Assembly (NCBI GenBank): GCA_017651185.1
Contig: JAGCDJ010000043.1
Coordinates: 6,555-70,554, forward strand
Direction of reading: 5' to 3'
Source: Bacteroidales bacterium
Lineage (GTDB): Bacteria; Bacteroidota; Bacteroidia; Bacteroidales; ML635J-15
Length of the DNA: 64,000 bases
Shown piece by piece: positions 8,140 to 19,996 of this stretch. Position 1 is the first letter of the stretch; the number at the start of each line of letters is the position of its first letter. A program made the translations under genes and the position numbers. The notes below the pieces were generated by a model. It was not told the DNA's origin. It ran no database searches and worked only from the letters and a program-made list of their open reading frames with translations.

Positions 8140-8226
8140 CACGACTTTTTGCAGATGTTACGGGGTTCTTCATTTGCACAAAGTCAGATTGATTTTAAAT
8201 AAATTAGCGAACCCAACATATTGTTT

Positions 8227-9489
8227 ATGAAAGACATATTTGAAAGAATTCACGAGTCTTCGGGCGGTCCGCTCGGACAGTACAGAGAAAAATTTGAGGG
8301 ATATTACACATTTCCGAAATTGGAAGGTGAAATTGGTCCTCACATGATGTTCAACGGCAGGGAAGTTTTGTGCTGGAGTTTGAACAATTATCTTGGTTTG
8401 GCAAATCATCCTGCAGTTCGCAAGGCCGATGCCGATGGCGCTGCTAAGTGGGGTTTGGCTTATCCTATGGGTAGCCGTATGCTTACAGGTCACACTGCTT
8501 TGCACGAAAAACTTGAACGCGAACTCGCTGACTTCGAAAAGAAGGAAGCTGCTTTCCAGATGAACTTTGGTTATCAGGGTATAGTTTCTGTAATCGACAG
8601 CCTTATGACTCGTCACGATGTCATAGTTTTCGATGCTGAGGCACACGCTTGTCTGCTCGATGGAAAACGCTTGCATATTGGTAAGTCGTTCTCGTACAAG
8701 CACAACGATATAGAGAGCTGCGAAAAGAAATTGCAGGTTGCTTGCAAAATTGCCGATGAACAGGGTGGCGGCGTATTGCTTATTACCGAAGGCGTTTACG
8801 GTATGACCGGCGCTCTTGGTATTCTCGACCAGATTGTTGCCTTGAAGAAGAAATACAATTTCCGTATCCTTATTGACGATGCTCACGGCTTTGGCGTTAT
8901 GGGCGAACACGGACGCGGTACTTCGGAGCACTTCAACGTAATGGACGACATCGACATTTACATTGGCGCTTACGCAAAATCAATGGCTTGTATCGGTGGT
9001 TTCGTTGCATCAAAGAAGTATATCATTGATTTCCTACGCTACAACATGCGTTCACAGATTTACGCAAAGGCACTTCCGATGCCAATAGTTGAAGGCTGCT
9101 TGAAGCGTCTCGAAATCATTCGCAGTGCCGAAGGTGATGAACTCCGCAAGAAATTGTGGACTGTAACCCGTCGTCTGCAGGAAGGTTTCCGCAACCTCGG
9201 ATTCACTATCGGTCCAGCAGAGGCATGTGTAACACCAGTTCATATTAAGGGTGGCGTAAATCAGGCAGTTAATATGGCATACGACCTGCGTGAAAACTAC
9301 AGAATTTTCTGTTCAATAGTAACTTATCCTGTAATTCCTGTCGGAATGATTATTTTCCGTATTATCCCGACCGCTGTTCACAGCATCGAGGATGTTGACT
9401 ATACTTTGAATGCATTCAAGGAAATAAAGGAAAAACTTGAAAGTGGTAAGTATGATGCACCTGCTCCAATGATTAATTTCTCAAAGTAG
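8227..9489 (+). CDS. PLP-dependent alpha-oxoamine synthase; probable cysteate-C-fatty acyltransferase (SulA/CapB type)
   Basis: NNYLGL, DDAHG, PLP lysine in YAKS (K251 from ATG 8227); YNMRSQIYAKALPMP places a lysine at 281, where serine palmitoyltransferases have FSAS. Confidence 0.8.
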   Translation: MKDIFERIHESSGGPLGQYREKFEGYYTFPKLEGEIGPHMMFNGREVLCWSLNNYLGLANHPAVRKADADGAAKWGLAYPMGSRMLTGHTALHEKLERELADFEKKEAAFQMNFGYQGIVSVIDSLMTRHDVIVFDAEAHACLLDGKRLHIGKSFSYKHNDIESCEKKLQVACKIADEQGGGVLLITEGVYGMTGALGILDQIVALKKKYNFRILIDDAHGFGVMGEHGRGTSEHFNVMDDIDIYIGAYAKSMACIGGFVASKKYIIDFLRYNMRSQIYAKALPMPIVEGCLKRLEIIRSAEGDELRKKLWTVTRRLQEGFRNLGFTIGPAEACVTPVHIKGGVNQAVNMAYDLRENYRIFCSIVTYPVIPVGMIIFRIIPTAVHSIEDVDYTLNAFKEIKEKLESGKYDAPAPMINFSK

Positions 9490-9577
9490 GGCAGATGTTA
9501 GAGTAATTGAAATAATAAAATACGGGGAAAAGTGTTCGGATTCCGAATGCTTTTCCTGCTTTAAAAGCATTAAGACT

Positions 9578-10798
9578 ATGAAATACAACCTGATTTGCAA
9601 AAAGTGTGGCGCTGTAATAAATAATTTCGCAGAATGGTTTGAAAATGACCAACTTTGCCCTAAGTGCGGAAGCAATCATGTGGAGGTAAAATACGATGCC
9701 GACTATTCGAAACTTCCCGCGTTGTACAATGGCAAGCCCGAAAGTTTCTGGCATTACTTCGATTTCTTGCCTCTCGAAGACAAGAAGAATATAGTAAGTT
9801 TTGGCGAAGGCGCTATTCCTGTCGAACACTGGGAGTTTCTCGACCGCGTTGCAAAGGAAAAGTACGGAATCGACTGCAAGGCATACGTTTACCGTAATGA
9901 CCTTAACGGAGGAACCAACACTTTCAAGGACGTTGCTGCTTCTTTGGCCGCTTCGCTTTTCAAGGAGAATGGTGTAAAGGAATATTGTCTTGCATCGAGC
10001 GGAAATACAGCTACTGCATACAGCAAGTATCTGGCTAAGGCAGGCGTTAAGTTCGATATTTTTGTTCCAGAATGCGTTTGCAAGGATACTGCCGACGAGA
10101 TTCGCTCTCTTGGACAGAACTTGGTAGTTTGCGAAGGCGACTACGGCGCAGCCAAGAAAGTTGCCGCTAACTTCCACAAGGAGCAGAAGGTTATGATTTC
10201 GGCAGGTAATATCGACCCGATACGTGTTGAAGCAAAGAAGACTATGGTGTTTGAGTTTATGCGTCAACTTGGCAAGATGCCCGATGTATATGTTCAGGCA
10301 GTTGCTGGAGGAACAGGACCTATTGCACTCGACAAGGGCGTACGTGAGATATGCGACAAGTATCCCGAAGTTAAGTTGCCGCGCATGATTTTGGTTCAGC
10401 AGGACACTTGCGATCCGATGGTTCAGGGTTGGGAGCGTGCCGTAAAGAGCAATTTTGCAGAAGGTTACGAAAAGGATTATCCTGTAATCGACAATCCGCA
10501 GACAAAGGTTTCGATACTTTCGGCTGGAAATCCGGGTATGTACCCGTTGGTGGCTCCGATAGTACGCAAGAGCGACGGTTATTTTGTTCGCGTTAAGGAG
10601 TCGGAACTTGTCGATTATGCAAGTATTGCAAAGGATGAGAAGAACGTTTACTTCGGTCCTGCAGGTGCAGTTTGCTTTGCCGGATTCTACAAGGCGCTCG
10701 AGGAAGGTCGTATCAGAAATGGTGAAACCGTTCTCATAAATACTGGCGAAGGTGCTGCTCGCGCAAAGGATTTCAAGGCCGCTGTTGACAAAAAATAA
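9578..10798 (+). CDS. Threonine-synthase-fold PLP enzyme with N-terminal Zn ribbon; candidate cysteate synthase
   Basis: CKKC...CPKC, TFKD PLP lysine, ASSGNT, AVAGGTG; gene context suggests the function. Confidence 0.65.
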   Translation: MKYNLICKKCGAVINNFAEWFENDQLCPKCGSNHVEVKYDADYSKLPALYNGKPESFWHYFDFLPLEDKKNIVSFGEGAIPVEHWEFLDRVAKEKYGIDCKAYVYRNDLNGGTNTFKDVAASLAASLFKENGVKEYCLASSGNTATAYSKYLAKAGVKFDIFVPECVCKDTADEIRSLGQNLVVCEGDYGAAKKVAANFHKEQKVMISAGNIDPIRVEAKKTMVFEFMRQLGKMPDVYVQAVAGGTGPIALDKGVREICDKYPEVKLPRMILVQQDTCDPMVQGWERAVKSNFAEGYEKDYPVIDNPQTKVSILSAGNPGMYPLVAPIVRKSDGYFVRVKESELVDYASIAKDEKNVYFGPAGAVCFAGFYKALEEGRIRNGETVLINTGEGAARAKDFKAAVDKK

Positions 10799-10828
10799 AA
10801 ACGAATCAAAATGTTACATTTAGGGACC

Positions 10829-10989
10829 GTCATTCCACAAGTCAGAACATACTCGCGATACGGAACGGGGAGCGTTGTAATGTTCGACTATGCGGAATCT
10901 CCTATGGAACCGTTTTCAGATGGAGATTCCGTACAGACAGGCTCACAAGGCTCGAACCTGCGCCTGTTCGCTTTGTCTTACGGAATGAC
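10829..10989. repeat. CGTC-type REP-like nested palindrome
   Basis: GTCATTCC (10829) pairs with GGAATGAC (10982-10989); inner TGCGGAATCTCC / GGAGATTCCGTA. Confidence 0.7.
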
Positions 10990-11003
10990 ACTATTGTAGT
11001 CGT

Positions 11004-11807
11004 ATGAAACCTCGTTTTGCTGGCAAAATAGTATGGATAACTGGTGCTTCGTCGGGAATAGGCGAGGCAACTGCCTACCGCATGTCTGCCGAAGGCGCAA
11101 GTCTTATTCTGACTTCGCGTAACGAATCGGCGCTTGCGTCGGTGCGTGAAAGGTGCATTGCCAGTGGCGCACCAAAGGCGGAGGTTTTACCAGCAGATTT
11201 GTCGCAACTTGAAAATCTGGAAAAACTGGCAGAATCGGCATGGTCGCTTTTCGGAAAGATTGACATTTTCTTCTGTAATGCTGGCATCAGTCAGCGGTCG
11301 AATACCATCGATTCGCAGATGGAGGTGATTGACAAGGTGATGGATGTCAACTATTTTGCTCCAGTTACAATCACAAAGGCGTTGCTTCCGAAGATGATTG
11401 CTGCTGGTGGTGGACAGATTGCCGTTACTACAAGCATTGCAGGAAAATTCGGTTTTCCGCTGCGTTGCGCCTATAGCTCGTCAAAGTTCGCTCTGTATGG
11501 CTTTTTCGAGACGGTGCAGGCCGAGTGCTATAAGGACGGCATACGTGTTACTTTTGTTTGTCCGGGTCGTGTTCAGACCAACATTTCGCTCTATGCACTC
11601 GAAAAGGACGGCACTCCGCACGGCAAGATGGACGCTGGTCAGGCTGGTGGAATAACATCGGAGATGGCGGCACGTAAGATTGCAAATGCCATTTATAGGA
11701 AAAAACGCGAAGTGCTTGTCGGTGGCAAGGAACTGCTTATGGTACATATCAAAAGGTGGTTCCCGGGTCTGGCGGCAAGGATTGCAAGGAATATAAAGGC
11801 GATGTAA
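11004..11807 (+). CDS. Short-chain dehydrogenase/reductase; candidate 3-ketocapnine reductase (CapC-like)
   Basis: TGASSGIG, CNAG, YSSSK; context next to the acyltransferase and cysteate synthase candidates. Confidence 0.75.
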   Translation: MKPRFAGKIVWITGASSGIGEATAYRMSAEGASLILTSRNESALASVRERCIASGAPKAEVLPADLSQLENLEKLAESAWSLFGKIDIFFCNAGISQRSNTIDSQMEVIDKVMDVNYFAPVTITKALLPKMIAAGGGQIAVTTSIAGKFGFPLRCAYSSSKFALYGFFETVQAECYKDGIRVTFVCPGRVQTNISLYALEKDGTPHGKMDAGQAGGITSEMAARKIANAIYRKKREVLVGGKELLMVHIKRWFPGLAARIARNIKAM

Positions 11808-11893
11808 AATTATAATTGACAATTAATAATGGAAAATTTTTTTTAATTTAATCATCAAATTTTCAAATTATCAAATTTTTGAATAATTAGCAA

Positions 11894-12964
11894 ATGGAAA
11901 ATTACTTTATATCTGGAATACAGCAGGTTGGCGTAGGAACAGAAAATTTCCACGAATCGTGGAAGTGGTATATCAAGATGTTTGGAATGGATGTCAAGAT
12001 TTTGGAGGACGACACAGTTGCCGAGCGAATGCTTCCTTATACAGGCAATCAGCCACAGAAGCGCCACGCCTGTATTGCAATAAATCTTCAAGGTGGTGGC
12101 GGATTCGAAATCTGGCAGTATTCGCAGCGTAAGCCAGAACCGATAGGCTTTGATGTGCAGGTTGCCGACCTCGGTATTTTTGCCGCCAAGATTAAGAGCC
12201 GCAATGTAAAGGCATACCACGATGAGTTGAAGGCTAAGTACGACAAGATTAGCGATGTTGCCAAGACTCCCGAAGGAAAGGACACTTTCATCGTTAAGGA
12301 TCCGTGGAACAACTATTTCCAAGTTGTTGAGGACGACTATGTTTTCATCGATGAAAAGCGTTTGTCGGGTGGTACGGTTGGTGCTATGATTGGCGTTACC
12401 GACGTAGAACGTGCATTGTCGGTTTACCGCGATGTGCTTGGTTACGATACGGTTGTTTACGATGAGACTGGCGTTTTCGATGACTTTGCATTTATGAATG
12501 GCGGAAACCAGAAGTACCGTCGTGTATTGCTTAGGTCGTCGCGTAAGCCAAAGGGTGCTTTTGCCGAACTTATGGGTAGTAGCAGCATTGAACTTGTCGT
12601 AGCATTGGAGCGCCAGCCGAGAAAGATTTTTGAAGGCCGCTATTGGGGTGACCCTGGTTTCATTCAGTTGTGCTTCGATATTACCAATATGCAGGAATTG
12701 AGGAAGTTCTGCGAATCAAAGGGGTTCCCGTTCACAGTTGACAGTTGTCCGAACAACGAGCGTTTCGATATGGGCGAGGCAAGCGGACATTTTACCTACA
12801 TCGAAGACCCCGATGGCACTTTGATAGAATTTGTTGAAACACATAAGATTCCCGTAATGAAGAAATTGGGCTGGAATATAAATATGCTCAAGCGCAACCG
12901 CGAAAAGCCGTTGCCAAGGTTCCTGTTCAAGGTTATGGGAATGTTTAAAGTAAAATTGGATTAA
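11894..12964 (+). CDS. Two-domain VOC (glyoxalase/epimerase-like) protein
   Basis: GIQQVGVG, FEIWQ, KDPWNNYFQVVE, GFIQLCF, EDPDGTLIEFVE. Confidence 0.8.
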   Translation: MENYFISGIQQVGVGTENFHESWKWYIKMFGMDVKILEDDTVAERMLPYTGNQPQKRHACIAINLQGGGGFEIWQYSQRKPEPIGFDVQVADLGIFAAKIKSRNVKAYHDELKAKYDKISDVAKTPEGKDTFIVKDPWNNYFQVVEDDYVFIDEKRLSGGTVGAMIGVTDVERALSVYRDVLGYDTVVYDETGVFDDFAFMNGGNQKYRRVLLRSSRKPKGAFAELMGSSSIELVVALERQPRKIFEGRYWGDPGFIQLCFDITNMQELRKFCESKGFPFTVDSCPNNERFDMGEASGHFTYIEDPDGTLIEFVETHKIPVMKKLGWNINMLKRNREKPLPRFLFKVMGMFKVKLD

Positions 12965-12965
12965 T

Positions 12966-13571
12966 ATGGGAAACTTATATGACCTATTGATGCAGGATGC
13001 GCGTTTTGAGGATGCACTCAAAGCATGCATGAACTGCGGAATATGCACGGCAATATGTCCCGCTGCCGAGTTTTTCCAGTACGACCCGCGCCGAATCTGC
13101 GATATTGTTCAGCGCAAGGACGAAAACGAGATTGAGGCATTGCTGCGTTCAGATATGATTTGGCATTGCGGTCAGTGCCTGTCGTGCAAGACACGCTGTC
13201 CGCGACAGAATGTCCCTGCCGAAGTGATACTTGTGCTTAGGCAAGTCGCCATTAAACTCGGCTATATGGACGAGCGTATTGCCGAGCAGGAAAAGCGTCT
13301 GGCAGAGACTGTTGGAAACAATATACTTGAAATAGGATATTGCGTACATCCCGACAAGGTAAAACCCGAACTTCATCAGGAGCAAGGACCTATTTGGGAG
13401 TGGTATATAAATAACATAGAGGCGGTAGCACCAAAACTTGGCGCCAATTATCATGGCGACGGTCCTGGCGCATTGCGCAAGATACGCGAGGAAAACCTTC
13501 AGGAAGTCAGAAAGATTTTCGAGGTTACCGGCGGTATGGACTTGTTGAAAACATTGAAGGAGGAAAAATGA
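12966..13571 (+). CDS. HdrC-like 2x[4Fe-4S] subunit (sHdrC1-like)
   Basis: CMNCGICTAICP and IWHCGQCLSCKTRCP. Confidence 0.8.
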   Translation: MGNLYDLLMQDARFEDALKACMNCGICTAICPAAEFFQYDPRRICDIVQRKDENEIEALLRSDMIWHCGQCLSCKTRCPRQNVPAEVILVLRQVAIKLGYMDERIAEQEKRLAETVGNNILEIGYCVHPDKVKPELHQEQGPIWEWYINNIEAVAPKLGANYHGDGPGALRKIREENLQEVRKIFEVTGGMDLLKTLKEEK

Positions 13572-13903
13572 GAAAGTTCGGTTTTTCAATATCGCAGACA
13601 AGGTCAATAGATTTGGACCAGATTGACTTTAGTTGCCTCGACGAACTGCGCGAAGCAGTTCCTACATTCATGGTATGCATCAATTGTGGTGCATGTACTG
13701 CAACATGTTCGGCTCAGCAGTTTTCAGATTTTAACATCCGCAAGATAAAGACTATGCTTATGCAAGGACAGTACGAAGGACTTGCAAAACAACTCGATAA
13801 ATGCATGCTTTGCGGAAAGTGCACATTGGTATGTCCGCGTGAAGTAAATCTTAGGAATTCGATTGTAAACATGCGGAGAATATTAACGAAAAAGAATAAG
13901 TGA
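13568..13903 (+). CDS. Small HdrC-like 2x[4Fe-4S] dicluster protein
   Basis: CINCGACTATCS and CMLCGKCTLVCP; overlaps both neighbours. Confidence 0.8.
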   Translation: MRKFGFSISQTRSIDLDQIDFSCLDELREAVPTFMVCINCGACTATCSAQQFSDFNIRKIKTMLMQGQYEGLAKQLDKCMLCGKCTLVCPREVNLRNSIVNMRRILTKKNK

Positions 13904-15687
13904 TGATGAAATATTTCAGTCCGTTTGTACTTCCGTTCGTTCTTGGTGCCTTTGTACTGCTTGGAATATGTGTTTTCAAGTACATCAGATGGTACAGGAG
14001 TTTCGATAGGGTACAACGTTCAAAGGTAAAGAAGAATATTCTTTCGTTGAAATTCCTTCCTGCAATATGGGAGGCGATTTTGGAATGTCTGTTCCATCGT
14101 AAGGTTTTCAGGCGCAACCTTGTTTTGGGTTACATGCATTGTAGTATTGCTTTCGGGTGGTTTTTGCTGATAGTTGTAGGTGCCATAGAAGCCGAGGTTT
14201 GTATTCATGGTTCAAAGCCATTTTGGGTGGCAATATTTTATAGGTTCTTTGTGCATCAGCACGATACGCAGACAAGCATAGTCTTTGCAAACATAATGGA
14301 TGCACTGCTTCTGGTTGTACTTTCGGGTGTAACGCTTGCTGTTATAAAGATGGTGTACTCGAAGATTGTGGGAATGCGCAGGGTGACCAAGCATGTACTG
14401 TTCGACCGTTTTGCAAAGTTCTCGCTGTGGTTCATTTTCCCGTTGCGACTTTTGGCTGAAAGTTATACGGCTGCATATTACGGCAACGGTGGATTTATGA
14501 CACAGGCATTAGGTAATTTGTTTGCTCCTATTTATCACGAATATGTTGAAATGGGATTGTGGACAATGTACTCCATCTGTCTGGCTGTGTTCTTTGTTTC
14601 GTTGCCATTTTCGCGTTACATGCACATTTTTACCGAAGTTTTCCTTATTTTCTTCCGCCGTATGGGTGTTACCGAAGGCGACGAAAAGACTGGCTATACG
14701 ATGTACGAACTTAGCGCTTGCTCGCGTTGCGGTATTTGTATCGACAACTGCCCGATGGACAAGCAACTTGGCGTACAAGGTGTGCAGTCGGTTTATTTAC
14801 TTCGCGATGTTCGTTACAAGCGTGGAACAGAGGAGGTTGCAAACCAGTGCCTTATGTGTCAGCGTTGTTCGTCAGATTGTCCTGTTGGTCTAGACCTTAT
14901 GACAATTCGCCGTCAGGTAAGAAATAAGGAAACTAACCTTGATGCTTCTGGATATTACAGTTATGCTGATAACATTCAGGCATTCAATTCGGTAGGACGA
15001 GTTTTGTATTTCGGCGGATGCATGTCGCATCTTACGCCTGGCATTACCGAAGCCATGATGAAGATTTTCGATGCTGTTGACCAGAAATACTGGTATATGG
15101 ACAAGGACAGGACTATTTGCTGTGGTCGTCCGTTGTTGCAGCAGGGATTTTTGAAGCAGGCAAAGGACTTGCGTCTTAAGAATCAGAGCATGATAATCAA
15201 GTCGAAGGCAAAACTGCTTGTAACATCGTGTCCGATATGCTACCAGTCGTTTACAAAGGAGTATAACCTGCCGATAAAGGTTATGCATCACACCGAATAC
15301 ATCGAAGGTCTGATAAGGTCGGGCAGGTTGAAGTTGCGCAAGGACGACCTTAAGGTTGTTTACCACGATCCGTGCGAACTTGGTCGCGGATGCGGAATAT
15401 ACAACGAGCCACGCGAGGTTTTGAAGTCTGTTTCAACCTTGGTTAAGGCGAAGTACGAAAAGGAAAAGAGCCTTTGCTGTGGTTTCAATCTTGGTAGTAC
15501 AGTGCTGACAATGGACCAGCAGACCAAGGTGCGCGATGCAGCGGTGGAAAGTCTTATGGATAAGAATCCTGACTTGATTGCAACAGCCTGCCCGATGTGC
15601 AAGAAGGCGTTTAATCACGCGACAACATTGCAGGTGAAGGATGTCGCTGAGATTGTAGCGGAAAACATTATAAAAGTTGAAAGTTGA
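13903..15687 (+). CDS. Membrane-anchored Fe-S oxidoreductase (NarI/HdrE-like TM region, 2x[4Fe-4S], two CCG domains; HdrD/GlpC-like)
   Basis: Hydrophobic N-terminal helices with His (GYMH, RYMH); CSRCGICIDNCP, CLMCQRCSSDCP; ICCG..CPIC and HDPC..LCCG..CPMC. Confidence 0.8.
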   Translation: MMKYFSPFVLPFVLGAFVLLGICVFKYIRWYRSFDRVQRSKVKKNILSLKFLPAIWEAILECLFHRKVFRRNLVLGYMHCSIAFGWFLLIVVGAIEAEVCIHGSKPFWVAIFYRFFVHQHDTQTSIVFANIMDALLLVVLSGVTLAVIKMVYSKIVGMRRVTKHVLFDRFAKFSLWFIFPLRLLAESYTAAYYGNGGFMTQALGNLFAPIYHEYVEMGLWTMYSICLAVFFVSLPFSRYMHIFTEVFLIFFRRMGVTEGDEKTGYTMYELSACSRCGICIDNCPMDKQLGVQGVQSVYLLRDVRYKRGTEEVANQCLMCQRCSSDCPVGLDLMTIRRQVRNKETNLDASGYYSYADNIQAFNSVGRVLYFGGCMSHLTPGITEAMMKIFDAVDQKYWYMDKDRTICCGRPLLQQGFLKQAKDLRLKNQSMIIKSKAKLLVTSCPICYQSFTKEYNLPIKVMHHTEYIEGLIRSGRLKLRKDDLKVVYHDPCELGRGCGIYNEPREVLKSVSTLVKAKYEKEKSLCCGFNLGSTVLTMDQQTKVRDAAVESLMDKNPDLIATACPMCKKAFNHATTLQVKDVAEIVAENIIKVES

Positions 15688-15780
15688 AAGTTGAAAATTG
15701 AAATGACGGTTGTAGTCGCGCAATGCTTTGCGCAGAATGGATAAAATAAATTAAGAAAGAATAATTTGAATTCAAATTAT

Positions 15781-16848
15781 ATGGACGAATCAAAAAATAG
15801 AAGATATTGGAACGAATACCAGAAGGAAATTGCCGATGACAAGTTCTTCTACGAGCGCAGTTGCATCAGACAGACTTTTTTCCCTGGGTCGGAAACGGCT
15901 TTCCTGAAAATTATGCGTGAGGAGTTAGGCAAGGACATTCGCGACGAGGCCAACCAGCATACTTGCACGGGTATTGGCTATCATTCCGATATAGTTCCTA
16001 TGGAAACAACAATGACGGTTGTAGCACGCTTGTTTTCGCTTATGACCGATGCGGGTTACGAAAACTATGTGCCTTCGTGCGTTACTTCGTTCGGTATTTT
16101 TACCGAAATGGTTGAAATGTGGAAGGAGCATCCCGAACTTCTCGAAAAGACACGCAAGTACCTGAAGGAAGCCACAGGTCGCGATTTTGAGGCACCTAAA
16201 AATATTGCTCACCCATCCGACATCATATACAAGTATCGTTTCGAGTTGAAGGAAAAGATGAAATATCAACTTGTGAACCGTTTTACGGGCAAGCCGTTGC
16301 GCGTAGTGGAGCATATAGGTTGCCATTATGCCAAGATTTTCCCTGAAAAGGGTATTGGAAAGGCAGAATTTCCATACGTTCTCGCAGGAATGATAGAAGC
16401 GTGGGGTGGCGAGGTTGTTGATTATCCTGAGCGCCGTCATTGCTGTGGATTTGGATTCCGTCACTATCTGTTGCAGGAAAACCGTGGCTATTCTGTGGCT
16501 AACACCAAGAAAAAGTTCGAGTCGATGGAACCGTTTGAGCCTGATTTCATTGTCGCTAACTGTCCCGGTTGCGCTATGTTTATGGACAAATGGCAATATA
16601 CGATAGCCGAGATGGAAAACAAGACTTACGACAAGGACGGATATGGTATTCCAGTGCTAACCTACGAGGAAATGGCGGGAATGTTGCTCGGCTACGACCC
16701 GTGGAAACTCGGAATGCAGTTGCATCAGGTACAGGTTGAAAATCTGCTCGACAAGATAGGCATTCCGTACAAGCCAAACGAAAAATATCGCGGTGCAAAT
16801 GGAGAAATCCTTCCTTCGCCCGAAAAACCAATGAATTTAAAAGTGTAA
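15781..16848 (+). CDS. HdrB-like CCG-domain subunit (sHdrB1-like)
   Basis: Degenerate first CCG domain (QHTCTG, SCVTSFG); intact second domain (HIGCHY, CCGFGFRH, NCPGC). Confidence 0.8.
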   Translation: MDESKNRRYWNEYQKEIADDKFFYERSCIRQTFFPGSETAFLKIMREELGKDIRDEANQHTCTGIGYHSDIVPMETTMTVVARLFSLMTDAGYENYVPSCVTSFGIFTEMVEMWKEHPELLEKTRKYLKEATGRDFEAPKNIAHPSDIIYKYRFELKEKMKYQLVNRFTGKPLRVVEHIGCHYAKIFPEKGIGKAEFPYVLAGMIEAWGGEVVDYPERRHCCGFGFRHYLLQENRGYSVANTKKKFESMEPFEPDFIVANCPGCAMFMDKWQYTIAEMENKTYDKDGYGIPVLTYEEMAGMLLGYDPWKLGMQLHQVQVENLLDKIGIPYKPNEKYRGANGEILPSPEKPMNLKV

Positions 16849-16863
16849 TGTAAAATATTAGAT

Positions 16864-17871
16864 ATGAGTAAGATTGCTATAATAGGAGCCGGACCTGCCG
16901 GTATTGAAAGTGCATCGATGCTTGCAAGAAACCATGAGGTGCTGTTATTCGAAAAGTCATCGACAGCATTATCCAACATACTCGACAAGGCATATCTGTT
17001 CCCCGATTTTTCAAGTGCTACCGATATTGCCGACAGTTTGAATTCGAAACTTATAAATGAGAATATAAAGTTGATGCTTAATACCGAAGTCGTTGATGTT
17101 GTAAGAAACGATTCGGAATGGAAGATAGTTGACGCGTCAGGAAAGAACTATTTTGTTGATGCAGTGCTTATCACAACTGGTTACCAGACCTTTGACGCTA
17201 CGCGCAAGGAAGAACTTGGATATGGCATATACAAGGGCGTAGTTACTTCCATAGATATGGAAAGAATGATAAGGTACAACCAGATTGTGAACTCGATAAA
17301 CGAAGCACCGAAGCGTATTGTTTTCCTGCAGTGTGTAGGTTCGCGTGACGAAAAGTCTGGCAACCGCTATTGCTCCAAGGTTTGCTGTGTGACGGCTGTA
17401 AAACAGGCAATAGAAGTGCGTAAGATGCTTCCCGAAGCCGAAATATACATTTTCTATATGGACTTGCGCATGTGGGGACAGCATTTCGAGGAACTTTACC
17501 GTGAATCTCAGGAAAAGTATGACATCCGCTATGTGCGTGGACGTATTTCTGAGGCATCATCCACTTTCGACCGTAAGATACAGATAAAGGCGGAAGACAC
17601 TTTGCTCGGTGTTCCTCTGAAGATGACCACCGACTTGCTTGTACTGATGGTTGGTATGGAAGCATCGTCTGGAACAAAGTCGCTTGGTTGCAAGTGCGGA
17701 ATAGGGGGCGAGTATGGTTTCGTCAAGACGGCAACTCCGCATCTTTGCGACAACGAAACCTCCGAGAAGGGACTGTTTGTTGCAGGTTCGTGCAAGCGAC
17801 CAATGACAATCAACGATGTCATTAACGATGCAAGGTCGGCGGCGTGTGTTATTGGCGAATACTTAAGGTAA
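16864..17871 (+). CDS. Short HdrA-like FAD/[4Fe-4S] subunit (sHdrA-like)
   Basis: GAGPAG, CVGSRDEKSGNRYCSKVCC, FYMDLR, GLFVAGSC; 335 aa with no ferredoxin insertions. Confidence 0.8.
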   Translation: MSKIAIIGAGPAGIESASMLARNHEVLLFEKSSTALSNILDKAYLFPDFSSATDIADSLNSKLINENIKLMLNTEVVDVVRNDSEWKIVDASGKNYFVDAVLITTGYQTFDATRKEELGYGIYKGVVTSIDMERMIRYNQIVNSINEAPKRIVFLQCVGSRDEKSGNRYCSKVCCVTAVKQAIEVRKMLPEAEIYIFYMDLRMWGQHFEELYRESQEKYDIRYVRGRISEASSTFDRKIQIKAEDTLLGVPLKMTTDLLVLMVGMEASSGTKSLGCKCGIGGEYGFVKTATPHLCDNETSEKGLFVAGSCKRPMTINDVINDARSAACVIGEYLR

Positions 17872-17897
17872 ATATATATTTAGACATAATGAAAAAA

Positions 17898-17931
17898 TAA
17901 GCGGGAATGATTTCATTCCCGCTTACTTTTT
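17898..17931. terminator. Bidirectional intrinsic terminator closing the operon
   Basis: TAAGCGGGAATGA-TT-TCATTCCCGCTTA between convergent genes. Confidence 0.75.
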
Positions 17932-17952
17932 ATATGTATTGTTGTGTCGTTT

Positions 17953-19164
17953 TTATTTTGCCAGCCAGTTGGCGGGGTTCAGTGTAGCACTGCCCTTCCA
18001 TATTTCCAGATGCAACACTGTCTTGTTCTCCGAATCGTCGGTGTAAATTTTTCCGATTGCTTGTTTTGCCTTTACCTTGTCGCCAACCGAAACATAAACC
18101 TTGTCGAGATGCGTGTAAACGCTTAGGTATTCGCCATGCCTGATTATCACAGCGTTCTGCGTTCCGGGAATAGAGAATACTTTTCTAACTTCACCATCGA
18201 ACACAGCGCGTGCATCGGAACCGGTTGTTGTGGAAATGTCTATACCTTTATTGTCGATTTCAACGCCAGAAATCACAGGATGCGGCTGTTTGCCGAATCT
18301 CGATACGATAACTCCACGCTGTACTGGCCACGGAAGTTTGCCTACATTGCTGCCAAAATTGTCGCTTACAATTTTTTCTTCAGGCGTCAGTTCGTATTTG
18401 CCCGTATTTGCCTTGCCCTTAGATGCCGACGACTTCTTTACTTCCTCGGCAATCAACTTTTCGATGGCTGCCTGCAACTGCTGTTTTTGCTTGTTCTTTT
18501 CGGCTAGTTGTTTCTTTAGGTCTGCTTCTTTGCCTTTCAGTTTGGCAAGAGCGTTTTCCTGCTGTTTTTTTGCGTTTTCAAGATTTTTTGCTTCAACTTT
18601 TTCCTCGTCGAGGAGTTTTTGATGTTCTGCCTTTTGTGCCAAAAGTTTTTCCTTCTGTCTTTCAAGGAATGCCTTTATTGCGTTTATTGCAATAAGTTGT
18701 CGTTTACGATAGTCGGCCATCTGCTGCATGTATTTCAGTCGCAGGTACGATTGGTTGAAATCTTTCGACGACAGCAAAAACATTATTTCGTTGTTCTTAT
18801 TCTGGTTTTTCCAAGCAACTTGTAGCATCTTAGCATACGATGATTTTAGATTGTCCAGATCCTCGGTCATCATCGCTATTATCGATTCGGTTTCCTTGAT
18901 TTTTTCCGATACAAGTTTAATTTCCATGTTTATGTCGGAAATAAGTTCCTTACGCGACGAAATCTGACTGCCAAGCAGGGCAAGGTTATTTTCCGATTCC
19001 TTTTGGTTCTTGCGTGTTTCCTCGAGTAGTTTGTTGGTATAGTTTATTTCGTTGATAGTCTTCTTCTTCTTCTTTTCAAGTTCTGCCTTGGTCTGTGCGA
19101 ATGAACCAAATGCAAGCGCAAGCATTACGGATGCTAGGAATAATATTCTAACGATTCTTTTCAT
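17953..19164 (-). CDS. EnvC-family murein hydrolase activator (coiled coil + M23-like domain)
   Basis: Signal peptide, long coiled coil, LPWPV, GIDI, IIRHGEYLSVYTHL, LHLEIW. Confidence 0.85.
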   Translation of the reverse strand: MKRIVRILFLASVMLALAFGSFAQTKAELEKKKKKTINEINYTNKLLEETRKNQKESENNLALLGSQISSRKELISDINMEIKLVSEKIKETESIIAMMTEDLDNLKSSYAKMLQVAWKNQNKNNEIMFLLSSKDFNQSYLRLKYMQQMADYRKRQLIAINAIKAFLERQKEKLLAQKAEHQKLLDEEKVEAKNLENAKKQQENALAKLKGKEADLKKQLAEKNKQKQQLQAAIEKLIAEEVKKSSASKGKANTGKYELTPEEKIVSDNFGSNVGKLPWPVQRGVIVSRFGKQPHPVISGVEIDNKGIDISTTTGSDARAVFDGEVRKVFSIPGTQNAVIIRHGEYLSVYTHLDKVYVSVGDKVKAKQAIGKIYTDDSENKTVLHLEIWKGSATLNPANWLAK

Positions 19165-19996
19165 TAAGTTCAATTTTAGTGTATTTGGTTGGAATCTTGA
19201 ACGGGAATGTCAGTTCATCGTCAATTGTAAAATCGCTTATTGTGAATTTCATTGTTGCGTTTACATTGCCATATTCAACATATATGTTCATGTTTTGCGG
19301 GAATAGCAGGTCAGCGTATTTGGTAAACTTGTCATATTCCACAAAGGCGTTTCGTCCGTCCTCCAAGTCTTCGAGATACAAGTTCTTAACCTTGAATGTC
19401 CCAGGTATAACTTTCATAGTCTGAATAACAGAGCCGCGTCTCTCAGCATAATTGCCGTTCGGTCGTTTTTGCTTTTTCTGAGAAACTCTCGAAACGCAAT
19501 AGTACACAGAATCGACGCAAGAATTATAATCATCCTCCTTGTCGACATCGTTGTCCGACTGATAGCGGAAAAATTCATTTAGCAGTATCGACTGCAGGTC
19601 GTTGTACGAAAGGTCAACATTTGCAAAGTTCACAAGTGCGGAAATATCTTCAAGGTAATATTCGTTTTTTAGACGGTTTAACACCTTTACCGAATCACTT
19701 GAAACAAGCACTCTGAAACCTTCGATATTGAACGAACGCAAACTTATCCACAGGAGGCTATCGCGGCAGACGCGCAGATTGCCGCTAAACGAGTCGGGCG
19801 ATCCTCCATTTAACGAATATTCGCACGAAAATTTGTATGTTGCCTTAGCGTATGTAGGGGCATTGGCGGTTACATTCTCTATAATTTTGGCAGAACGTAA
19901 ATTCTCTTTCTTTTCGTTAGTTCCAACATTAGCAGTCCTGCACGCCCACAAGCATACCGACAGCACCAACACCAATATCAAATTCCTTCTTGCCAA
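19148..19996 (-). CDS. DUF4292-family lipoprotein
   Basis: Lipobox LWAC; RDSLLWISLR...DSVKVLNR; C-terminal FPFKIPTKY; conserved position between TPR and EnvC genes. Confidence 0.75.
   Translation of the reverse strand: MARRNLILVLVLSVCLWACRTANVGTNEKKENLRSAKIIENVTANAPTYAKATYKFSCEYSLNGGSPDSFSGNLRVCRDSLLWISLRSFNIEGFRVLVSSDSVKVLNRLKNEYYLEDISALVNFANVDLSYNDLQSILLNEFFRYQSDNDVDKEDDYNSCVDSVYYCVSRVSQKKQKRPNGNYAERRGSVIQTMKVIPGTFKVKNLYLEDLEDGRNAFVEYDKFTKYADLLFPQNMNIYVEYGNVNATMKFTISDFTIDDELTFPFKIPTKYTKIELNEKNR

Follow-up and report, generated by a model that had tools for sequence, protein, structure and literature searches.

The five heterodisulfide reductase (Hdr)-like genes described here occupy positions 12966-17871 on the plus strand of a 64,000-nucleotide stretch of Bacteroidales bacterium contig JAGCDJ010000043.1 (the window, whose positions serve as coordinates throughout). 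Judged by its sequences, the set is a relative of sHdr, the Hdr-like machinery of dissimilatory sulfur oxidizers, that falls outside the published definition of sHdr in both synteny and accessory genes. The five genes end a row of nine co-directional open reading frames (ORFs; 8221-17871, plus strand) with short gaps or overlaps between them, and this row opens with sulfonolipid genes, a context missing from the original prediction, which was made from the same DNA and recognized sHdr-type subunits. Since the row starts with these genes, the likely role shifts from dissimilatory to biosynthetic. We propose that the five proteins are an sHdr variant that is coupled to quinone, independent of LbpA, and the source of the sulfite used for cysteate, a proposal to which we give just short of an even chance. 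As a pattern across genomes, the tie between the five-gene module and sulfonolipid synthesis has good support.

The presumed catalytic subunit is the HdrB-like protein of 360 amino acids (15766-16848, plus strand), whose sequence includes the strings NQHTCTGIGY, SCVTSFG, and HCCGFGFRHY. We compared its cysteines with those of 13 canonical HdrB-type proteins, each of which has all 10 cluster cysteines. The N-terminal CCG domain keeps three of five (C33, C67, and C105), with Thr and Ser at positions 2 and 5, and the C-terminal CCG domain keeps all five, so that 8 of 10 are present in the pattern C-T-C-C-S / C-C-C-C-C plus CCGFGFRH. In the alignment, cysteine 5 of the N domain is replaced by Ser in 14/14 Bacteroidales and 10/10 sHdrB1 rows, and cysteine 2 is replaced by Thr or Ser in 10/10 sHdrB1 rows and 13/14 Bacteroidales rows (mod_L084 retains Cys). 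The CCGFGFR motif is found in the 10 sHdrB1 rows and in 13 of the 14 Bacteroidales rows, the remaining one, L098, having CCGYGFR. We read the depleted N-domain site and CCGFGFR as a derived state common to the Bacteroidales proteins and sHdrB1. Position 4 of the C domain separates the two groups, with Asp in 9 of 10 sHdrB1 rows and Cys in all 14 Bacteroidales rows. The true start of the HdrB-like protein may be an ATG five codons downstream of the called one, since most orthologues align only from around residue 11.

References for this comparison came from a search of 1.84 billion representatives, where 24 full-length relatives were chosen by eye among the best 150 of 741 matches (E≤1e-3), with fragments excluded. 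One of the 24, P0165, bears the cysteine pattern that the original prediction gives for sHdrB1; nine named relatives of it were used out of 120 listed, with source names that include Hyphomicrobiaceae, Rhizobiaceae, Thalassospiraceae, Burkholderiales, Chloroflexi, and Thermoplasmata. With a Hyphomicrobiaceae sHdrB1 query, 80 metagenome loci were fetched and six examined. All six have the layout C1-B1-A-H-C2-B2, the complete set of six genes being present in three of them (L104, L136, and L139), while the other three gave no sHdrB2 match. Pfam domains in the flanks of three loci include an LplA-type ligase (L101 and L139), a radical SAM protein and a sulfur transporter (L136), and GCV_H (L101), and the examined loci fit the type I shdr cluster as described in PMC11094781. 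The sHdrB1 label is thus one of context, based on source names, locus layout, and flanking domains. The HdrB-like protein scores 118 bits to sHdrB1 versus 57 bits to sHdrB2. In a tree of 47 rows (LG+G4, rooted on five chosen canonical rows), the 14 Bacteroidales proteins and two further relatives form the sister group of the sHdrB1 clade (support of 100/99), each side being likewise supported at 100/99, and the 13 canonical ten-cysteine, two-CCG proteins fall outside both. The HdrB-like protein fits the sHdrB1 lineage, as a B1 subunit of this type should.

The HdrA-like flavoprotein (335 amino acids; 16864-17871, plus strand) carries the cluster motif C-x12-C-x3-CC as CVGSRDEKSGNRYCSKVCC and matches sHdrA of Hyphomicrobium denitrificans (PDB 6tjr) from end to end, with residues 2-328 on chain residues 2-334 (E 5.4e-52). 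Methanogen HdrA chains cover mainly its residues 95-330, the C-terminal two-thirds. In the single alignment of this kind that was inspected (9sfi_A), the N-terminal region gives a weak match that is displaced upstream by about 95 chain residues relative to the main one, and it is because of this offset that we regard the inserted ferredoxin domain as missing. The protein has the makeup of the short HdrA type, which at about 340 amino acids combines flavin adenine dinucleotide (FAD) with one [4Fe-4S] cluster and lacks the ferredoxin insert. In the HdrA tree (27 rows), the Bacteroidales proteins are sister to sHdrA (100/99), although the sHdrA side consists of only five rows, each from a locus of proteobacterial type. 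Eight HdrA-type proteins of the long form and one MvhD-linked HdrA-like protein fall outside. Three natural HdrB-HdrA fusions of 630-697 amino acids (P0392, P0394, and P0415) have an N-terminal CCG part and a C-terminal short HdrA, and the HdrA parts of all three fall within the Bacteroidales HdrA clade. Because such fusions occur, the HdrB-like and HdrA-like subunits probably touch. The HdrC-like subunit (201 amino acids with two [4Fe-4S] motifs; 12966-13571, plus strand) contains the motif sequence HPDKVKPELHQEQGP already quoted in the original prediction, and BLASTP aligns its residues 13-199 with the sHdrC1 protein from a genuine shdr locus (31% identity, 94 bits), while methanogen HdrC covers only residues 16-103. 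The earlier claim that the subunits are of the sHdr and not the methanogen type is thus borne out by both trees, in which neither HdrB nor HdrA branches with canonical proteins, and by the end-to-end match of HdrC.

Between the HdrC-like and HdrB-like genes of the window lie genes for a small ferredoxin and a membrane protein. The membrane protein (595 amino acids; 13900-15687, plus strand) has about five hydrophobic transmembrane (TM) helices, a two-cubane domain with two CxxCxxCxxxC motifs, and a double CCG non-cubane-cluster domain. In 31 orthologues, three histidines of the membrane domain are invariant (H66, H80, and H242), as are the cubane cysteines (C274/277/280/284 and C317/320/323/327) and the CCG cysteines (C374, C407, C408, C444, and C447; C492, C526, C527, C564, and C567). 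The best PDB fold match of its AlphaFold2 model (pLDDT 89.1, pTM 0.84) is EtfD of Mycobacterium smegmatis (9ojn; E 1.9e-20, TM 0.75), which it follows along its full length at 18% sequence identity, while HdrB and LutA folds match the C-terminal domain only. This combination of a five-TM NarI-like, a two-cubane, and a non-cubane domain is that of EMO/EtfD, and heme binding is predicted. The original prediction of a membrane-coupled system agrees with the fold match and the three invariant histidines. A preprint on the Syntrophus EMO structure (10.64898/2026.08.18.745454) describes NarI-like heme b, HdrC-like two-cubane, and HdrB-like non-cubane-cluster domains, notes the likeness of EMO to HdrDE, has EMO/EtfD hand electrons to (methyl)menaquinone, and reports in its section 10 that the distal cluster varies in characterized EMOs. 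We considered whether the membrane protein could be a fused sHdrB2 and rejected this, as BLASTP gave no match to sHdrB2 at E≤0.01. The small ferredoxin (111 amino acids, two [4Fe-4S] motifs, Pfam Fer4_8/Fer4_9; 13568-13903, plus strand) stands in the position of sHdrC2, scores 50 and 40 bits to sHdrC1 and sHdrC2, respectively, and always comes ahead of the membrane protein in module loci. Three membrane-protein orthologues contain one in-frame stop each (TAG in G200:C8:105085-106863; TAA in G246:C8:418196-419974 and G163:C63:288-2027), which could be sequencing error, pseudogenes, or recoding.

A more familiar identity for these proteins would be an ordinary methanogen- or Flx-type bifurcating HdrABC, or an ordinary Etf:menaquinone oxidoreductase serving the EtfAB of the cell. 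The best NCBIfam names are indeed those of HdrA, HdrB, and HdrC models, the genome has two EtfAB pairs elsewhere, and the membrane protein has the EtfD-like fold just described. However, none of the five proteins reaches a curated cut-off for a methanogen Hdr model: the HdrA-like protein scores 219, 181, and 177 bits against cut-offs of 1100-1400, the HdrB-like protein 150 and 128 bits against 450 and 345, and the HdrC-like protein 105, 94, and 71 bits against 350, 270, and 160. Besides these scores, the short HdrA lacks the inserted and terminal ferredoxin domains, the HdrB-like protein keeps only part of the cluster cysteines, and the trees place both subunits with sHdr. The row lacks MvhD and Flx genes; in line with the original prediction of a cluster without lbpA, tusA, dsrE, mvhD, and flx, a Pfam scan of 10 ORFs at 8221-19173 found nothing of the GCV_H, TusA, DsrE, FlpD/MvhD, or Flx type. 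The membrane gene, moreover, is a fixed member of the module in 31/31 module loci, and etfAB adjoins the module in none of them. We therefore give these ordinary identities a very small chance.

The sulfonolipid side of the row begins with an orthologue of SulA, the cysteate-C-fatty acyltransferase (CFAT) that catalyzes the first committed step of sulfonolipid synthesis (8221-9489, plus strand). By phmmer it matches PDB 7u7h over residues 3-415 (E 1.9e-173, 580 bits) and 28eh, named "Cysteate-C-fatty acyltransferase" (E 1.4e-165, 554 bits), whereas serine palmitoyltransferases (SPT) are matched at E 7e-61 and SPT/KBL at no more than 209 bits. Its full-length similarity is clearly above that to SPT, KBL, and BioF. 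It is followed by a pyridoxal phosphate (PLP) enzyme of threonine-synthase fold with an N-terminal zinc ribbon (9578-10798, plus strand; Pfam PALP, E 2.6e-43), which scores 122 bits against the cysteate synthase model TIGR03844 (cut-off, 324.9) and 176 bits against the threonine synthase model PRK08197 (cut-off, 303), short of both. We regard it as a candidate analogue of cysteate synthase, of a second type. The third gene encodes a short-chain dehydrogenase (SDR; 11004-11807, plus strand; Pfam adh_short, E 4.8e-50) that passes the cut-off of NCBIfam NF004825 (232 bits versus 215) and, after the published pathway (PMC11211663), is a candidate 3-ketocapnine reductase. The fourth encodes a two-domain VOC/glyoxalase-fold protein of 356 amino acids (11894-12964, plus strand; Pfam Glyoxalase, E 1.1e-12), for which an atlas search yielded Bacteroidota VOC clusters only and no functional lead. 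Its stop codon is 1 nucleotide ahead of the hdrC-like start, and the next two junctions are 4-nucleotide overlaps.

In the published pathway, O-phosphoserine and sulfite give cysteate, which is converted to 3-ketocapnine, capnine, and finally sulfonolipid (PMC13692747 and PMC11211663); the reaction of O-phosphoserine with sulfite is likewise described for methanogens (PMC12713407). The introduction of PMC13692747 names the sulfite input without a source for an anaerobe living on sulfide, and the SulA paper (PMC9304779) makes no mention of heterodisulfide, sulfite, or an operon.

Linkage between the module and these genes recurs in other genomes. The 80 top-ranking related loci are all from uncultured rumen or gut Bacteroidales, and many of them are truncated at contig ends. 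By tblastn (E≤1e-10, half or more of the query covered), they contain the HdrB-like gene in 80, the HdrA-like gene in 70, the HdrC-like gene in 50, the small ferredoxin in 48, and the membrane protein in 50 cases, together with SulA in 31, the PLP enzyme in 34, the SDR in 34, and the VOC gene in 38. The PLP enzyme adjoins SulA in many of them, and the VOC gene, where present, usually lies directly upstream of the HdrC-like gene. Linkage of SulA to the module is found in at least four gene orders: that of the window, SulA-PLP-HdrC-B-A-Fd-Mem-SDR-VOC (where Fd is the small ferredoxin and Mem the membrane protein), one with the sulfonolipid genes downstream on the opposite strand, and one with an insertion of several kilobases. 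About 25 of the 80 loci have HdrB and HdrA alone in unrelated surroundings. Farther away, the order HdrC-HdrB-HdrA-Fd-Mem was found in 11 of 15 fetched loci, the other four being HdrC-HdrB-only copies, and in 20/20 further loci from distinct genomes, which makes 31/31 module loci overall; the genus of the window has the rearranged order C-Fd-Mem-B-A. Two genomes from a different family have, directly after the module, a bona fide cysteate synthase of the TIGR03844 type (474 and 443 bits; cut-off, 325) that shares only 25% identity with the PLP enzyme of the window. Other neighbors include a PAPS reductase with a CysN-like gene (L187; PAPS is 3'-phosphoadenosine 5'-phosphosulfate) and SerC/SerA-like genes (L198). 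In none of the 31 more distant loci does a VOC gene adjoin the module.

The HdrC-HdrB-only copies are second pairs without HdrA, ferredoxin, or membrane protein, seen in L086 (G067), L088 (G164), L093 (G269), and L096 (G051). They adjoin genes for DUF134, NifX-like (Nitro_FeMo-Co), Cys/Met-metabolism PLP enzyme, 4HBT thioesterase, and OsmC proteins, and the pair in L088 is also beside DsrE, DrsE_2, MvhD (FlpD), and a 436-amino-acid HdrA-like gene. Their HdrB copies group with the window protein in the HdrB tree (96/92) on short branches. This second pair looks like a separate sulfur-trafficking system.

We counted co-occurrence in 301 genomes of at least 90% completeness drawn evenly from the Bacteroidales, without correction for kinship in counts or tests and with the module scored as present when both the HdrB-like and the membrane protein were matched. 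The HdrB-like protein is found in 111/301 genomes, the membrane protein in 110/301, and both in 109/301; SulA-like proteins (E≤1e-120) are found in 228/301, the PAPS_reduct family in 233/301, the window-type PLP enzyme (E≤1e-70) in 53/301, and TIGR03844 in 77/301. All but one of the 109 module genomes carry SulA, versus 120 of the 192 without the module, and the module is present in 1 of 73 SulA-less genomes. Of the genomes that have both SulA and a synthase, 21/27 without PAPS_reduct carry the module versus 32/97 with it (uncorrected Fisher p 5e-5), and 221 of the 228 SulA genomes have an HdrB-like or a PAPS_reduct gene. The idea that the module stands in for PAPS reductase as a rule was rejected, since 81/109 module genomes carry a PAPS_reduct gene too; the module is therefore not a simple replacement of the PAPS route, and the enrichment alone remains. 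In a 179-genome class sample, the genome of the window was the only one positive for the HdrB-like protein, with no match in the 178 others (5 of the same order and, by our estimate, about 173 of other orders).

These counts bear on whether the complex has anything to do with sulfonolipids, for it could be a general quinone-linked module for thiol/disulfide chemistry or sulfide detoxification whose link to SulA reflects shared ancestry and habitat. SulA is common in any case, and the flanks are unrelated in 25 of the 31 loci farther away, while five loci have a LuxR-type two-component system that would suggest a regulated stress or respiratory use. In addition, PMC11129491 reports a "heterodisulfide reductase system" in Black Sea anaerobic isolates including Bacteroidota and suggests relief of sulfide toxicity; it notes capnine lipids in Ancylomarina and Labilibaculum separately from that system. 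This explanation does not readily account for the near-absence of the module from SulA-less genomes, for its enrichment where PAPS_reduct is missing, or for a linkage to SulA or synthase that recurs in several orders with two unrelated synthase types. We consider it unlikely, but by no means far-fetched.

The same sample informs the reading of the PLP enzyme. TIGR03844 and the window-type enzyme occur together in 1 genome of the 129 with either, and 124 of these 129 have SulA; it is this near-exclusive distribution, with both types traveling with SulA, that makes the window enzyme a candidate cysteate synthase. We rejected the notion of an invariable pairing between module and cysteate synthase, since one adjoins the module in only 4/31 distant loci and is present anywhere in only 53/109 module genomes. 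Since 104 SulA genomes have neither synthase type, a third source of cysteate likely exists, and 49 of the 104 also lack the module. One could suppose that the complex itself, perhaps with the VOC protein, oxidizes cysteine or a bound persulfide straight to cysteate, or performs another redox step of the lipid pathway. Nearly all of the 56 module genomes without either synthase have SulA, and the VOC gene, which in the window shows translational coupling to hdrC, is present in almost half of the related loci, as counted above; both points would be in keeping with such a step. On the other hand, the 49 genomes with neither synthase nor module need a further cysteate source anyway, and the linked loci usually hold a cysteate synthase as well, which would be redundant. 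We know of no precedent for direct oxidation of cysteine to cysteate by such a complex and consider this quite improbable.

The genome that contains the window, that of a rumen Bacteroidales, is 3.37 Mb in size and 99.4% complete. Neither TusA nor DsrE has a match anywhere in it, while control genomes were positive, and the genome has no PAPS_reduct match above the cut-off, no NIR_SIR, and no TIGR03844. Of the accessory genes for which a genome-wide search had been suggested in the original prediction (LbpA, TusA, DsrE, and rhodanese), TusA and DsrE are thus absent, but one GcvH-like gene beside pgk, one LplA-like gene, and, on another contig, two single-domain rhodaneses exist outside the row. 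The menA gene is present (C51:18674-19297). The only FrdA/NadB-type flavoprotein in the genome is a protein of 521 amino acids at C27:19777-21339.

Sulfite is the one pathway input without a known source in this genome, and sulfite supply is the role that we propose for the complex. The five proteins would form one iron-sulfur flavoprotein complex, an offshoot of the sHdr lineage tied to the membrane quinone pool instead of to a lipoate-binding protein. In a path drawn from homology and gene order, the HdrB1-like subunit, of whose two non-cubane cluster sites one is complete and the other depleted of cysteines, would act on a sulfur substrate, from where electrons would pass through the HdrC1-like subunit with its two cubanes, the short HdrA with FAD and one cubane, and the small ferredoxin. 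They would leave through the EMO/HdrDE-like membrane protein, with its non-cubane clusters, cubanes, and heme b, to menaquinone. The biosynthetic job would be the oxidation of sulfane sulfur or sulfide to sulfite in an anaerobe unable to make sulfite from sulfate; the neighboring cysteate synthase would condense this sulfite with O-phosphoserine, and the resulting cysteate would be turned into sulfonolipid by way of SulA and the SDR. Sulfite delivery is suggested by synteny and co-occurrence, and assembly into one complex by homology and the natural B-A fusions; we also infer the substrate, the sulfite product, the direction of electron flow, and the binding of heme. We favor the oxidative direction because the presumed catalytic subunit is homologous with sHdrB1. 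The standard potentials, about -116 mV for sulfite/sulfide and about -74 mV for menaquinone, make sulfide oxidation with menaquinone feasible, and removal of the sulfite would pull the reaction. A more specific form of the proposal, that the complex is a dedicated menaquinone-coupled generator of sulfite from sulfide-derived sulfane sulfur and constitutes the missing first step of sulfonolipid synthesis in anaerobic Bacteroidales that do not reduce sulfate, we hold tentatively, as somewhat short of an even chance.

Several observations weigh against sulfite supply by oxidation. According to PMC11094781, sHdr systems are always accompanied by LbpA, lipoate-assembly genes, and TusA, DsrE, or rhodanese, and this rule does not hold here because the row and the genome are without TusA, DsrE, LipS, and LipT; tblastn finds no homologue of sHdrH, LipS, LipT, or SoxT in the genome. 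Nor did we find a quinol sink in the genome, which has no FrdA paralogue and no cytochrome bd. The PLP enzyme is the sole threonine-synthase-fold gene that tblastn finds in the genome, and the Thr_synth_N domain is likewise missing from the genome (the Bacteroides thetaiotaomicron control was positive), so that the organism would lack threonine synthesis unless this enzyme serves as ThrC, either exclusively or in addition to another function. Most module genomes have a PAPS_reduct gene, as noted above, 56 of the 109 have neither synthase type, and the module is not associated with synthases as such (53/109 versus 76/192). Because related genomes are not independent, all of these counts overstate the case. 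The flanks of the module show no visible tie to sulfur or lipid in 25/31 of the more distant loci, and a LuxR-type response regulator adjoins it in 5/31 (L087, L091, L094, L184, and L194), which hints at regulated expression in those loci. A histidine kinase gene lies directly beside the regulator in four of them (HisKA_3 in L087, L091, and L194; HATPase_c only in L094). Finally, the membrane protein retains both five-cysteine non-cubane motifs, like catalytic HdrD, and by analogy such complete motifs would fit a disulfide-reducing direction equally well. With LbpA and sulfur carriers missing, no quinol sink found, and the HdrD-type motifs of the membrane protein complete, both the general-redox reading and a reductive one stay alive.

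In the reductive case, electrons from menaquinol, or from another donor through HdrA, would cleave the S-S bond of thiosulfate, S-sulfocysteine, or a similar thiosulfonate into sulfite and a thiol or sulfide. The HdrDE architecture of the membrane protein would suit this, the complex could itself be the quinol sink in a genome with menA but neither FrdA nor cytochrome bd, and the links to cysteate synthase and SulA fit it as well as they fit oxidation. The presumed catalytic subunit is, however, sister to sHdrB1, whose system oxidizes sulfane sulfur, and has the same depleted N-terminal site. The reduction of thiosulfate by menaquinol is also strongly uphill at standard potentials. We judge the reductive direction decidedly unlikely and keep sulfite supply by oxidation as the preferred reading.

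The strand, places, and lengths of the ORFs in the original prediction, and the strings quoted there, are all present in the sequence. The row is closed by a terminator-like hairpin (17892-17931), readable on both strands, with stems of 18 and 12 pairs followed by T runs, which separates it from a convergent M23 peptidase gene; the same consensus scan, the only basis for this feature, found no comparable hairpin inside 8221-17871. The HdrB-like protein has 2737 relatives at E≤1e-5, a relative is encoded in at least 567 candidate stretches of the species-representative genome collection, and with so many relatives we take the five ORFs to be real genes and not chance. G292, which belongs to the genus of the window and is 100% complete, lacks the HdrB-like protein, the membrane protein, SulA, the PLP enzyme, and PAPS_reduct, while three congeners carry the whole row. 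Since G292 has none of the locus and the three congeners have all of it, the locus seems to come or go as a unit within the genus.

Gut Bacteroidota (Alistipes, Odoribacter, and relatives) have sulfonolipids that are the subject of study as lipids with immune activity. If sulfite supply is correct, it would close the sulfonolipid pathway and provide a gene marker in about one-third of the sampled Bacteroidales genomes (109/301). It would also mean that the sHdr machinery of dissimilatory sulfur oxidizers has been re-used for biosynthesis and rewired from lipoate to quinone, giving a simpler five-subunit system without LbpA or sulfur relay in which to work out the HdrB1 site, and a model for sulfite supply to sulfonate cofactors in other strict anaerobes. 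If it is wrong, the module would still be a widespread, uncharacterized quinone-linked Hdr-like complex of gut and rumen anaerobes.

In the literature consulted, which did not extend to the 397 shdr-bearing assemblies of Table S1 of PMC11094781, we found no sulfonolipid synthesis coupled to Hdr-like genes, nor did we find sulfonolipid together with cysteate synthase and sulfite. Of the known systems, type I sHdr of Hyphomicrobium denitrificans and Aquifex aeolicus resembles the module in the kinship of the C1, B1, and short A subunits, in the depleted B1 site, and in CCGFGFR, and the module order C-B-A-(x)-C2-like-B2-like parallels shdrC1-B1-A-(H)-C2-B2. Section 5.8 of PMC11094781 defines sHdr by synteny as shdrC1B1AHC2B2 (type I) or shdrC1B1AHB3 with etfAB (type II). 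The row in the window has C1-, B1-, and A-like genes but no sHdrH, no soluble B2 or B3, and no etfAB, and it has neither LbpA with lipoate-assembly genes nor the accompanying TusA, DsrE, or rhodanese. The B1 subunit of the window also differs from that of type I in having Cys instead of Asp at C-domain position 4, and the host is an anaerobic gut Bacteroidales and not a sulfur lithotroph, with a context of lipid biosynthesis.

Type II sHdr (shdrC1B1AHB3-etfAB-emo) likewise joins an sHdr core to an EMO-type membrane protein, and PMC11094781, which describes emo in type II clusters, reports a proposed electron flow to menaquinone. Unlike type II, the module is without sHdrH, the B3 fusion, and EtfAB, and has the 111-amino-acid ferredoxin between HdrA and the membrane protein. 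The sulfonolipid pathway as described in PMC13692747, PMC11211663, and PMC9304779, with CapA/Cys, CapB/CFAT/SulA, and CapC/KCR, is mirrored in the row by the SulA orthologue, a PLP beta-replacement enzyme, and the SDR, although the PLP enzyme is not of the TIGR03844 type. The EMO/EtfD proteins of Syntrophus aciditrophicus and M. smegmatis (9ojn) share the NarI-like five-TM, two-cubane, and non-cubane-cluster build of the membrane protein; unlike characterized EMOs, the window protein keeps five cysteines at both non-cubane sites, and its gene partners are an Hdr-like set instead of etfAB. By architecture, Methanosarcina HdrDE likewise combines a cytochrome b part, two cubanes, and two complete CCG motifs, which in the window are fused in one chain, whereas the window system would be a bacterial, menaquinone-based one that operates without coenzyme M/coenzyme B metabolism and with the additional A, B, and C subunits.

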